Translations under genes and position numbers: made by a program
Virus record (IMG/VR): IMGVR_UViG_2609459846_000009
Strand: one strand, 5' to 3'
Length of the DNA: 7,460 nucleotides
From: a virus
Lineage: Duplodnaviria; Heunggongvirae; Uroviricota; Caudoviricetes
Notes under the pieces: model-generated
What the model was told of the DNA's origin: nothing
Seen by the model: the letters and a program-made list of their open reading frames with translations, nothing else
The model's database searches: none
Part shown: piece by piece, positions 127 to 7,460 of the stretch
How the letters are laid out: each line of letters opens with the position of its first letter
How positions within the stretch are numbered: position 1 is the stretch's first letter

Positions 127-3528
<3,402 letters not shown>

Positions 3529-3585: not shown

Positions 3586-4233
3586 TCAGCGACCAATCAC
3601 CACAACCTGACCGCCATCCCCTTCGTCTGCCGTGCTGATCTCCTGAGAAACCACGCGTGACCCCACGCGCATTTCACCGTACAGAACCGGCAGAACATTG
3701 CCCTGGGCAACCATGTTATCCAGTGAGGAGAAATAGGTGTTCTGTTTGCCGTTATCTGTACTGGCTGCCGTGGGCGTCCTGGCTTTCGGTGCCAGCATCT
3801 GCGCCACACCACCCAGGATCATACTGGCCCCTGCTGCATACAGACCCGATACAGCCGCGGCCCCCAGCCAGCCAACAGGGTTCCACCATGCCACCGCAAT
3901 CAGCGCCGCACCCAGCACCGCCTGAAACACACCGCCACTTTTGGCACCCGCCAGACGCGGAACGACGTGGATCACGGCACCATTTGCCAGCGGTTCATTA
4001 AGACGGGCAGATAATTCATTTTCGCCTGCATCACGCCCGGAAATGCGCACCTGATACCAGCCCTCATTCAGTTTCTGGCGAAACGACGGAAGCTGTGTGG
4101 CCAGCGCCCGGATGGCTTCAGCCCCCGTTTTCACACGAAGGTCGATGCGGCGGCCAAATCGTTGTAAATCCCCGTAAAGGCAGATGCGTGCCATGCCCGG
4201 TGACGCCAGAGGGAGTGTGTGCGTCGCTGCCAT
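3586..4233 (-). CDS. I: Tail assembly protein I (N-terminal ubiquitin-like domain ending in Gly-Gly, then hydrophobic Gly/Ala-rich segment), 215 aa
   Basis: N-terminus MAATHTLPLASPGMARICLYGDLQRFGRRIDLRVKTGAEAIRALATQLP matches my recollection of lambda gpI. ATG at 4233..4231. Diglycine at residues 100-101 (codons 3936..3931). The 103-nt overlap with the upstream K ORF is the same as the K/I overlap in lambda. Confidence 0.9.
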   Translation of the reverse strand: MAATHTLPLASPGMARICLYGDLQRFGRRIDLRVKTGAEAIRALATQLPSFRQKLNEGWYQVRISGRDAGENELSARLNEPLANGAVIHVVPRLAGAKSGGVFQAVLGAALIAVAWWNPVGWLGAAAVSGLYAAGASMILGGVAQMLAPKARTPTAASTDNGKQNTYFSSLDNMVAQGNVLPVLYGEMRVGSRVVSQEISTADEGDGGQVVVIGR

Positions 4234-4874
4234 TTGTCGGTATACCTCTCTCGTTTGCTCAGTTGTTCAGGAATATGGTGCAGCAGCTCGCCGTCACCAC
4301 AGTAAATGGCGGCATGATTCGGCACCGATGAACCAAAACAGCACAGCAGCACATCGCCCGGCTGCGCCGCTGACAACGGCACCTGATACAGCCCTGTGGC
4401 CTCCAGATTATCCAGATAGAGATTCTGACCGTGACGCCACCAGTCATCCTCGCGATGAAAATCCGGCATCTCAATCCCCGCCAGATGGTAAGCATCCCGG
4501 AACAGTGTGTAACAGTCCGTCACACCGTGCTCAAAGCGCCGCCCGGTAAGATGTGGCACACAGCGGAACTTGTGAATCGCCCCCCGGCAGACCAGCCACC
4601 ACGGCAAATCACTCTGCACCTGCAGCCGCCGGTCGGCCTCACTCAGCCAGGGCAGACCACCGGGGTGGCTGTGGACCAGTGCCACAATCTCACCCTGCAT
4701 CTCTGCCTGCAGCCAGTCCTCCGGAGCCATCCGGAAATAATCCTCCGGCTCACCGGAAATATTCACGCAGGGAAAATATCTTTCCCCCTCCGGCGCTCTC
4801 ACCACGAAGCCGCACGACTCCGCTGGCGCACATCGCCGGGCGTGCGCCAGAATCGCTGATTCTGTCTCTGTCAT
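4131..4874 (-). CDS. K: Tail assembly protein K (JAB/MPN metalloprotease domain plus NlpC/P60 domain); 247 aa from first ATG, with an alternative lambda-style internal start at 4730 giving 199 aa
   Basis: JAMM motif HSHPGGLPWLSEAD (HxH-x7-S-x2-D; His codons at 4673..4665) with a candidate upstream catalytic Glu at codon 4820..4818 in PAESCG. NlpC/P60-like Cys (VTDCYTLF) and downstream His. ATG at 4874..4872 lies 4 nt after the L stop. The ORF-track first codon at 4916 is TTG, not ATG. Confidence 0.85.
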   Translation of the reverse strand: MTETESAILAHARRCAPAESCGFVVRAPEGERYFPCVNISGEPEDYFRMAPEDWLQAEMQGEIVALVHSHPGGLPWLSEADRRLQVQSDLPWWLVCRGAIHKFRCVPHLTGRRFEHGVTDCYTLFRDAYHLAGIEMPDFHREDDWWRHGQNLYLDNLEATGLYQVPLSAAQPGDVLLCCFGSSVPNHAAIYCGDGELLHHIPEQLSKRERYTDKWQRRTHSLWRHRAWHASAFTGIYNDLAAASTFV

Positions 4875-4878
4875 GGGA

Positions 4879-5577
4879 TTACTGCGAAAGTTTGTTAATG
4901 GAAAGGAAGCCGCCAAAGTTGCCGACGTTATTGCGAAACTTACAGCCGCTCAGGCATTTGCTGCATTTATCCTTCGTGATATCGGACGTTGGCTGGTCAT
5001 ATTCATCCGCGACAGCCGGACCGCTATAACCGCACTCGTCGCCGCGATAGGTCCAGGTGCAGGTGTTGGCCAGCATGATACGCCCCGGAAAAACAGAGCC
5101 ATCCGTTTCAGTCGGTGTGGACAGTACAAAAGAGACACTGACCGCGCTCAGTTCGCTGCACTGCTCGATGCGCCAGCGGCTGATCACCTCCTGCTCCGGA
5201 TCGGCTTCGCTGTTTCCGTTGACGAAGTTCACCGCATCCAGAAAACGGGCGTAAACCTTACGCCGGACCACCGTTCCGCCGACCAGACTCTGCAGGTCTT
5301 CCGCCATCCCGGTGACCATGCCGTGCAGGTTAGAAACCGTCAGTGTCGGACGGGCAGCACTGCCCTTGCCGTTCAGTTCAAATCCCGTCCCCTGAATGGG
5401 ATACGCCTGATACTGTCGCCCCTGCCAGGTGACCGGCTCACCTTTTTCGTTCTGCTCATTACAGAAAAAATAACGTTCTCCACCGACCACTGTCAGATCG
5501 ATTTCCCAGAGCACCACCTGGGCTGACTGAGTGAGGCGTGTCGTCTCATGATGTGTTTCCTGTGGAATATCCTGCAT
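4879..5577 (-). CDS. L: Tail tip protein L, 232 aa, with C-terminal cysteine cluster
   Basis: 232 aa, the same length as lambda gpL. N-terminus MQDIPQETHHETTRLTQSAQVVLWEIDLT matches lambda L as I recall it. C-terminal DECG...CSKCLSGC cysteine cluster is consistent with the iron-sulphur site reported for gpL. ATG at 5577..5575 with GGAG 7 nt upstream, overlapping the M stop. Confidence 0.93.
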   Translation of the reverse strand: MQDIPQETHHETTRLTQSAQVVLWEIDLTVVGGERYFFCNEQNEKGEPVTWQGRQYQAYPIQGTGFELNGKGSAARPTLTVSNLHGMVTGMAEDLQSLVGGTVVRRKVYARFLDAVNFVNGNSEADPEQEVISRWRIEQCSELSAVSVSFVLSTPTETDGSVFPGRIMLANTCTWTYRGDECGYSGPAVADEYDQPTSDITKDKCSKCLSGCKFRNNVGNFGGFLSINKLSQ

Positions 5578-5586
5578 CAGAGACTC

Positions 5587-5916
5587 CTATGCCACGACCT
5601 GTTCAAAATCTGCCGTTATGGTTACCCACAACGCCCCCACGCTTGCCGACCATTTACGACAAACCACCCTGATCGGCTTCCAGTCATAAGGTGGCGTCCA
5701 CTGAAATGCGCGGACGCCACCGTGCCGTTCCAGAAAGGCTTTTAAAGATGGGTGTTCACATTTACGAACACGTATCGTCACGCTGTAAGTCGACAACTGG
5801 TTATTCAGTCCCGCCGCACGACGCTGTTCATAACCATCGCCCAGCTTCACTGTCACCACTTTCGGCTCTGATACCACATTCATATCCGGGCGCACTTTCC
5901 AGTGAAACGTCTCCAT
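5587..5916 (-). CDS. M: Minor tail / tail tip protein M, 109 aa
   Basis: 109 aa, the same length as lambda gpM. Start codon overlaps the H stop in a TAATG arrangement (H stop 5918..5916, M ATG 5916..5914), as at the lambda H/M junction. Gene order H-M-L matches lambda. Confidence 0.92.
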   Translation of the reverse strand: METFHWKVRPDMNVVSEPKVVTVKLGDGYEQRRAAGLNNQLSTYSVTIRVRKCEHPSLKAFLERHGGVRAFQWTPPYDWKPIRVVCRKWSASVGALWVTITADFEQVVA

Positions 5917-7056
5917 TACCGATATGCTCCACTTAACCGACCACCATCACGGGCCTGCTGTTGCATAAAGTCCGCTGCCGCTTTTTTCCCGAGGTCATAA
6001 ACCACCTTCAGGGCAGCCGGACCTATCTGCCCGTTCGTGCCATCGTTATTGATCTCGATGTTGTACTGCGGGGCAAACATCGCCATACCTGAACCACCAA
6101 TATCCGCCACAACCCCCAGCTTACCGTCAGCACCACGACGCAGTGGCAGAATGGCTTCAGGTCCCGCTTCCCCCATCACACCCGCGCCTTTTGCAAAAGC
6201 AAAAAACGTCGGACGGTTAACCACCGTGCCACTGTAACGACTCAAATCAGCAGACTGATAAATCCCCCCATTGGCATTCAGGGAAAGGCTGCTGAGATCA
6301 AATCTCAGTACACTGCCAATCCCTTTTATCGATTTCATCATGGTTGCCTGCGCCAGGATTTTCGCCATATCTGACAGCACAGAAGAGGTGAAGGATTTGA
6401 AATTGAGTTTGCCGGTAGTGACAAAAGTTGCCAGGCCATTTCCCATGTTGCTGAAGGCTGACGAGAACACCTGTTCTGCTGTTCCTGCCGTATTATCTGC
6501 ATCCACGGTAAAATCCTGAAATGCACGCAGGACTCCGTTTTTCCAGTTACCCTGCACAACTTCAAGCTGTTGCCAGTAACGGCGATTCTCATTCAGTTGT
6601 CGGTTCAGGCTCTCCGTCAGCGCCTGCTCGGCCTTTCTGTAGTCATCCGTGTTATATGTTCCTTTCTGCTCACTATCCCGCCTCAACTGCTCCAGCTGTT
6701 GCTGGTATTTCTGGCGAAGACTCAGTTGTACCTGATATCGCTGCCGCTGCTGATCACCCATACCCACCGTGGCGATATCCAGGTCATGTTGCTGACGCTG
6801 AGCGCGCTCTTCTTCAGCCAGTTGACTGGTCAGCTGAATTGTTTTTTTCTTCAGCTCGTTGAGTGCCGTCTGTTTCTGAAGCTCCTGCTGTTTTACATCC
6901 AGCAGCGTCAGTGCCTGAATCAGTTCATCTTTACGGGCCAGCACACTCTTTTCATCTGCCGTCAGTTCTTTCCCGTCCAGGTCGCTGATGCGCTGCTGCA
7001 GAGCCAGAAGCTGTTTATGCGCTTCTGTCATCCTTTCCGTGGCAATGCCTGCTGAC
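5916..7056 (-). pseudogene. H: Tail tape-measure protein H, 3' fragment (about 380 C-terminal codons), truncated at its 5' side by an IS insertion
   Basis: C-terminus ...INNDGTNGQIGPAALKVVYDLGKKAAADFMQQQARDGGRLSGAYR resembles the lambda gpH C-terminus. Q/E/L-rich coiled-coil-like region is typical of tape-measure proteins. About 380 aa remain against about 853 aa for lambda H. The reading frame runs upstream into IS-derived sequence at about 7057. Confidence 0.8.
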
Positions 7057-7098
7057 TGAACCGCCCCGGGTTTCCTGGAGAGTGTTTTATCTGTGAAC
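7057..7098. repeat. Right terminal inverted repeat region of the IS3-family element
   Basis: Non-coding stretch between the IS terminus (7057, 5'-TGAACC...) and the transposase stop codon (7099..7101). The exact length of the inverted repeat cannot be fixed without the other IS end. Confidence 0.55.
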
Positions 7099-7460
7099 TC
7101 AGGCTGCCAGATCATCGTTTCCGATGGAAGCATAATAAGCTTTTTCTGCTTCTGCCGGTGGGATATGGCCCAGCCTTTCCAGCAATCGTCGATTGTTATA
7201 CCAGTCCACCCACGTGAGTGTGGCCAGCTCCACTTCTGTCCGGTTTTTCCAGCTCTTACGGTGTATTACCTCCGCTTTGTAAAGGCCATTGATGCTCTCC
7301 GCCATCGCGTTGTCATACGAGTCACCAGTACTTCCTGTTGATGCCAGTAATCCGGCTTCCTTAAGCCGCTGTGTGTAGGCCAGCGATACATACTGAGAAC
7401 CTTTATCACTGTGATGGACTGTGCCGGACGGTTGACGGGCCCATAACGCCTGCTCCAGAG
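7099..7460 (-). CDS. IS3-family transposase OrfB (DDE integrase core), C-terminal portion; 5' end lies outside the window
   Basis: Minus-strand frame is open from the window edge to the stop at 7099..7101. Hand translation upstream of the track's Met gives ...STGSTGDSYDNAMAESINGLYKAEVIHRKSWKNRTEVELATLTWVDWYNNRRLLERLGHIPPAEAEKAYY..., the conserved catalytic-Glu region (YDNA-AES...NG-LK-E) of IS3-family OrfB. Confidence 0.85.
   Translation of the reverse strand, partial: LEQALWARQPSGTVHHSDKGSQYVSLAYTQRLKEAGLLASTGSTGDSYDNAMAESINGLYKAEVIHRKSWKNRTEVELATLTWVDWYNNRRLLERLGHIPPAEAEKAYYASIGNDDLAA

Follow-up and report, generated by a model that had tools for sequence, protein, structure and literature searches.

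The closest described relative of the gene studied here is gene K of bacteriophage lambda, whose product gpK is needed for tail assembly and is absent from virions (PMC10721106, PMC12617516). A JAMM motif was recognised in lambda K as early as 2003 (PMC300881), and Iyer et al. (2006) described K proteins that combine a JAB domain with an NlpC/P60 domain, proposing that the JAB part frees gpI of its ubiquitin-like domain by cutting at the C-terminal Gly of that domain (PMC1779556). A 247-aa K with this two-domain architecture is already known, both from that 2006 literature and from RefSeq/PGAP annotation. In the lambda records J02459 and NC_001416, K is annotated as a protein of 199 aa (14276..14875 in both), as the initial annotation of the present locus had stated; the UniProt entry for lambda K is, we presume, also 199 aa long. 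A review from 2020 that applied HHpred to the 199-aa gpK found only one peptidase domain (residues 52-182) and took gpI as a protein of 190 residues (PMC7291167). The gpK and gpI used there are truncated gene models.

We analysed a window (the whole stretch of DNA under study) of 7,460 nucleotides from the viral record IMGVR_UViG_2609459846_000009 (Caudoviricetes). Its minus strand, on which all features given below are located, carries a lambda-type tail-tip module composed of the 3' part of H followed by M, L, K, I and J. The module comprises the ORF of the 3' part of the tape-measure gene H (5916..7133), cut by an IS3-family element; gene M (5587..5916), recognised as an ORF and by Pfam; gene L (4879..5577; 232 aa; Pfam Phage_tail_L, 331.7 bits), whose stop adjoins the start of K; gene K itself (4131..4874); gene I (3586..4233; 215 aa), which matches Pfam Lambda_tail_I over residues 14-97 and overlaps the 3' end of K by 103 nt; and the ORF of gene J (127..3525). 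A prophage of E. coli E203449 carries positions 4050..5000 of the window with 100% identity, and there PGAP annotates a K gene of 744 nt (WP_032200033.1, 'C40 family peptidase'). The 3' end of the IS3-family transposase lies at 7099..7305, interrupting H (window 5916..7305), and PGAP labels H as a pseudogene in the E203449 locus. Because H is interrupted by this insertion, the prophage in the window is probably unable to form tails, even with intact L, K, I and J genes.

Gene K consists of 247 codons followed by TGA (4133..4131), and its proposed ATG start (4874..4872) is separated from the L stop TAA (4881..4879) by the 4 nt TCCC. The initial annotation had set the equivalent of the 199-aa lambda start at an internal ATG (4730..4728), which encodes Met49 and is preceded by GGAGG (4746..4742; 10-11 nt before the ATG, with a gap of 11 nt), and had traced the open frame 48 codons further, up to the ATG located 4 nt past the L stop; all these coordinates proved exact. 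We consider it very probable that K is a two-domain predicted peptidase of 247 aa starting at ATG 4874..4872 and that the lambda K of 199 aa arose as an artefact of annotation.

The translation signals around the two ATG codons differ markedly. GGAGG upstream of ATG 4730 can form an anti-Shine-Dalgarno duplex of -9.5 kcal/mol, whereas upstream of ATG 4874 the best duplex reaches only +0.7 kcal/mol, which amounts to no Shine-Dalgarno sequence. Because of this lack and of the gap of 4-5 nt to the L stop, translation of K probably depends on that of L: ribosomes terminating at the L stop would reinitiate 4 nt further on, at the K ATG. The adjacency of the L stop and K recurs in distant relatives. 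The GGAGG itself is explained by the codons that contain it, which encode P43-E44-D45. A second Shine-Dalgarno look-alike, GGAGGGGGA, is found in codons P28-E29-G30-E31 (window 4764..4795), 5' of an in-frame GTG at 4766 that is the start of the 211-aa K annotated in KT232076. Glu and Gly codons make this region rich in purines, and it misleads start prediction.

Codons 2-48 (4731..4871), absent from the 199-aa form, encode core elements of the predicted MPN fold. They include PAESCG (residues 17-22), whose glutamate (GAG, 4820..4818) the initial annotation had proposed as the catalytic residue of a JAMM motif. The arrangement E19...H68-S-H70-x7-S78-x2-D81 does have the exact JAMM spacing, with Glu19 aligned to the catalytic (general-base) glutamate and the zinc-binding half of the motif encoded at 4632..4673. 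In Pfam, the Prok-JAB profile (PF14464; cut-off 25) matched the 247-aa protein with 52.9 bits over profile positions 4-103 of 114, but the 199-aa form, matching positions 63-103 only, stayed under this cut-off at 23.0 bits; the 48-residue extension by itself matched positions 3-51. The check suggested for the two forms, a comparison of domain coverage, thus favoured the long one, the only one passing the Prok-JAB threshold. Likewise, the NCBIfam desampylase (JAMM) model matched residues 3-114 of the 247-aa K and gave no match for the 199-aa form. Further downstream, NLPC_P60 (PF00877; cut-off 23) matched residues 111-224 with 49.2 bits over the full profile, and the phrog_30 model (lambda-type tail tip assembly protein K, TAPK) matched the entire protein, residues 1-247, with 545.7 bits.

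Structural predictions led to the same picture. AlphaFold2 (AF2) applied to the single sequence yielded a pLDDT of only 33, so we used instead a model based on an alignment of 79 sequences (pLDDT 97.3, pTM 0.91). In this model, residues 1-48 form a helix (3-15) and two strands (21-27 and 30-36) that are core elements of the MPN fold, and Met49 is placed between strand 30-36 and helix 51-60 of the same fold. Foldseek searches with the N-terminal domain retrieved JAMM1 from P. furiosus, alone and SAMP2-bound (5ld9/5lda; target-normalised TM 0.66-0.68, rmsd 2.6-2.7 Å), together with 2kks, AMSH, CSN5 and Rpn11, and those with the C-terminal domain retrieved the NlpC/P60 enzymes MepS, LytE and Acd33800. 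When K is aligned with PDB 2kks, PAESCG pairs with PNEACG, HSHP with HSHP and SEADRRL with SAEDKRL, E19 falling on the Glu of PNEACG.

Residues 1 to ~105 of K are hence predicted to form a complete JAMM/MPN+ zinc metalloprotease domain (E19, H68, H70, S78, D81), recognised by its motif, its profile score and its MPN fold, the last from the AF2 model and the Foldseek matches. Residues ~111-224 are predicted to form an NlpC/P60 (C40) cysteine peptidase, as indicated by the profile match and by the Cys-His-His residues C121, H187 and H199 (4278..4514; conservation, Pfam and Foldseek). The gene also occupies the position expected for TAPK, between L and I and upstream of J. K is predicted to be catalytically active. 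Translation from Met49, judging from the model, would leave a broken MPN half-domain of ~57 residues. As the initial annotation had anticipated, the 199-aa form has an incomplete MPN domain, deprived of E19, helix 3-15 and strands 21-27 and 30-36.

We then looked at how far the N-terminal segment is conserved. An exhaustive HMMER search with K against 1.84 billion representatives recovered 2749 relatives; among the matches listed with <60% identity, ~100 proteins of 220-280 aa aligned from query residues 1-19, with 3 exceptions. For residue-level comparison we aligned 79 homologues (32-58% identity) picked for aligning from near the N-terminus and, since this set was selected on that very property, the unbiased figure is the ~100 versus 3 from the search listing. 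Five positions, G22, N38, H68, H70 and D81, were invariant in all 79 proteins. E19 was kept in 78 of them, as were C121, H187 and H199 each, followed by F47 (76/79), S78 (75/79, the other 4 having Thr), C21 (74/79) and P17 (73/79). Conservation therefore reaches 5' of Met49 (P17, E19, C21, G22, N38, F47), and Met49 itself is usually Ile (51/79 homologues, versus 12/79 with Met). The N-terminal segment is conserved in homologues down to ~30% identity. In 20 divergent loci (30-53% identity to K), found with single distant proteins as queries, the residue aligned to E19 was always Glu and a start codon was always located 16-21 codons upstream of the Glu codon; in most of these loci, the stop of the L homologue was 0-5 nt from the K start or overlapped it.

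Closer relatives supported the same start. An ATG-started K ORF of 247 codons was present in 87 of 89 related loci, the 2 exceptions being the two lambda reference records. Across 78 distinct close K genes, codons 2-48 showed 10, 2 and 24 variable sites at the first, second and third codon positions, respectively (pN/pS 0.23), and these codons are under purifying selection in the 247-aa frame. Domain coverage, conservation and gene order consequently support the longer K as the likely functional product, as had been proposed initially, and Met49 does not mark where the functional protein begins.

A different reading is that the gene makes both products, the 247-aa protein from ATG 4874 and an isoform of 199 aa with the NlpC/P60 domain only, initiated at ATG 4730 by means of GGAGG. 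The strong duplex of -9.5 kcal/mol speaks for it, as does the frequency with which gene callers pick this ATG (among the close relatives listed, the 199-aa K clusters P0055, P0057, P0063 and P0066 sum to ~11,000 member sequences), and phage K versions with an NlpC/P60 domain only do exist (Iyer et al., PMC1779556). However, Met49 is Met in only 12 of the 79 homologues, so that internal initiation is not a conserved feature, and the 199-aa form would not be a clean domain but one preceded by ~57 residues of broken MPN fold. Moreover, the P-E-D codons suffice to explain GGAGG, whose 11-nt spacing is above the optimum. We regard the production of two proteins as unlikely, and a single 247-aa product as the reading to be preferred.

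If the 247-aa frame is the true one, the 199-aa K of the lambda reference requires an explanation, and a probable one lies in the reference sequence. J02459/NC_001416 lack one G after nt 14266, which puts the segment upstream of the 199-aa start in another frame. In NC_001416, the K frame upstream of 14276 is closed by a TGA at a distance of seven codons from this ATG, and the ATG at 14133, five bases past the L stop, opens a different frame encoding MTQTESAILAHARRCAPAESCGF... By contrast, five independently deposited lambda or lambda-derived records (PV340536 lambda, OM418626 lambda imm434, LC730321 Lambda_AGU, EU078592 DE3 and KT232076) contain GAGGCGTATTTCC versus GAGGC-TATTTCC in the reference; aligned at the discrepancy, the reference reads GAGGC-TATTTCCGTATG and the five other records read GAGGCGTATTTCCGTATG. 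The extra G brings ATG 14133 in frame with the 199-aa K and extends it to 247 aa. Lambda_AGU has a length of 48,503 bp, that is, the reference plus one base.

The reference state is rare. It was found in only 4 of the 218 phage records with a match, namely J02459, NC_001416, OR974322 and OR474059. One of the latter two is marked UNVERIFIED and the other, labelled 'lambda', came from a chicken cloacal swab and has the K coordinates of the reference; both may be derived from the lambda reference. None of the 10,571 matching places in 4356 complete E. coli genome records showed 100% identity to the reference state, the best E. coli match being of 99.6%, with 242 record bases against the 241-base query, namely one gap. 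Most probably, then, a single base was left out of the lambda sequence of 1982. The sequence notes of a commercial supplier for lambda cI857 Sam7 presumably list a G insertion at 14266 as well, although we did not use them as evidence. In the literature, hybrid phage sequences have been reported to display 9 differences from the original lambda sequence, common to many laboratory strains, without details (Feiss et al. 2022, PMC9119081). We found no explicit statement on the discrepancy at 14266 or on K length in the literature searched. Programmed frameshifting in lambda K was also considered and rejected, as the frame is intact in every resequenced lambda.

These data suggest how the short gene model may have arisen. 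With the G absent from the 1982 reference, the first 48 codons would have been out of frame; the omission forced annotators to the next ATG, which follows GGAGG, and this short call would then have been copied onto records with an intact frame. The initial annotation had suspected that the short K was a propagated error. This is right as regards its copying into the intact-frame sequences of DE3 and imm434, but it is an incomplete account, since the lambda reference sequence itself lacks one base: there, the 199-aa start most probably reflects an error in the sequence, beyond a mere choice of start.

It might be argued that the reference is true for the strain sequenced by Sanger and that this laboratory lambda had a real 1-nt deletion, in which case tails could be assembled with the C-terminal fragment of 199 aa and the JAMM domain would not be needed. 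Such lesions do occur in stocks, as laboratory lambda has a real frameshift in stf (PMC10721106), and the reference state is present in two other deposited records. Nevertheless, tail assembly needs K (PMC12617516), the JAMM residues are strongly conserved, the extra G occurs in each independently deposited derivative examined (DE3, imm434, Lambda_AGU, PV340536 and KT232076), and no E. coli genome among the 4356 records has the reference state, all of which makes a genuine deletion quite improbable. Finally, a start further 5' at TTG 4916..4914, up to which the frame is open and which would give a protein of 261 aa whose gene overlaps L at its 3' end, was rejected and has a negligible probability in our opinion, since close relatives differ by an indel of 1 nt in the stretch from the L stop to the K ATG (TAAATCCC in 51 loci vs TAATCCC in 27 loci), which shows that the frame is not maintained 5' of this ATG, and the Glu sits 11-35 residues (median ~21) from the N-terminus in distant homologues.

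Public records are divided on the length of K. The 247-aa protein starting at the ATG next to the L stop is annotated by PGAP and in phage 21, phage 434 and PV340536, whereas DE3 (EU078592) and lambda imm434 (OM418626) still have a 199-aa K despite their intact frame. Among the close relatives listed, the 247-aa K clusters amount, as a rough sum, to ~50,000 member sequences, and about one in five of the close K gene calls listed is of the short form. The 199-aa gene calls are likely due to ribosome-binding signals, given the GGAGG at ATG 4730 and the lack of one at ATG 4874.

The gene located downstream provides a candidate substrate for the JAMM domain. The N-terminal ubiquitin-like domain of gpI ends in ..AGAKSGG, and that of lambda gpI (1774..2445 of locus L001) in ..PRVAGAKSGG, the di-Gly being G100-G101. 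In one cryo-EM study, gpI is resolved from residue 101 onward (PMC11101478). The single gpI peptide reported in virions by mass spectrometry covers 9.87% of the protein, equal to 22 residues, and presumably corresponds to the C-terminal tryptic peptide. The di-Gly, the resolved portion of gpI and the virion peptide are all compatible with removal of the ubiquitin-like domain, but they do not prove it. The most likely substrate of K, and the leading candidate, would be the ubiquitin-like N-domain of gpI, cut after the di-Gly, an idea that goes back to 2006 (PMC1779556). There is a possibility, with somewhat less than even chances, that K with its full JAMM domain acts as a deubiquitinase-like maturation protease that removes this domain during tail-tip assembly, and that one of its peptidase domains might also convert gpH into gpH*. 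Our search of the searchable literature found no experimental test of K cleaving gpI.

The start of gene I also varies in public records. One option is ATG 4233 (215 aa here, 223 aa in lambda); others are possibly Met14 (ATG 4194) and, in PV340536 and KT232076, a GTG at 4134 that overlaps the stop codon of K. The GTG start would truncate the ubiquitin-like domain, because Lambda_tail_I covers residues 14-97.

Our results represent a correction of bookkeeping without new biology, and their value lies in documenting an erratum in the reference records of lambda. Although lambda serves as the reference phage, NC_001416 still has the 199-aa K, a short form that conceals an entire predicted catalytic domain. 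A 'K' cloned from the reference coordinates would give a truncated, probably misfolded protein, and such clones could account for uninformative interaction screens (PMC3224144).

Compared with known systems, the K of the window is an orthologue of lambda gpK (NP_040598 / AAA96551, 199 aa), with which it shares ~95% DNA identity in the K region, the gene order L-K-I-J and a nearly identical sequence over residues 49-247; the difference is that the reference entry lacks residues 1-48 as a result of the missing G after 14266, whereas the frame is intact in the window. WP_032200033.1 from E. coli E203449 and the 247-aa K of phages 21, 434 and lambda PV340536 have the same start and the same length, and in the three phages K starts 4-5 nt past the L stop, as in the window. 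WP_032200033.1 presents no difference of substance, although its PGAP product name covers the C40 half and not the JAMM one. At the family level, the window K is a typical member of the TAPK family (Iyer, Burroughs & Aravind 2006), defined by JAB plus NlpC/P60 beside the ubiquitin-like TAPI, with the same architecture, the same neighbours I and J, and no difference. More distantly, K resembles the JAMM deconjugases PfJAMM1 (5ld9/5lda), the H. volcanii desampylase HvJAMM1 and DSY2949 (2kks), enzymes that cut ubiquitin-like SAMPs behind their C-terminal di-Gly, in its predicted fold and in the full E-HxH-S-D motif. It departs from them in its low sequence identity (~22-26%), in a score of 28.5 bits versus a desampylase equivalog cut-off of 130, and in the fusion of its JAMM domain to an NlpC/P60 domain, with gpI as a candidate substrate only.
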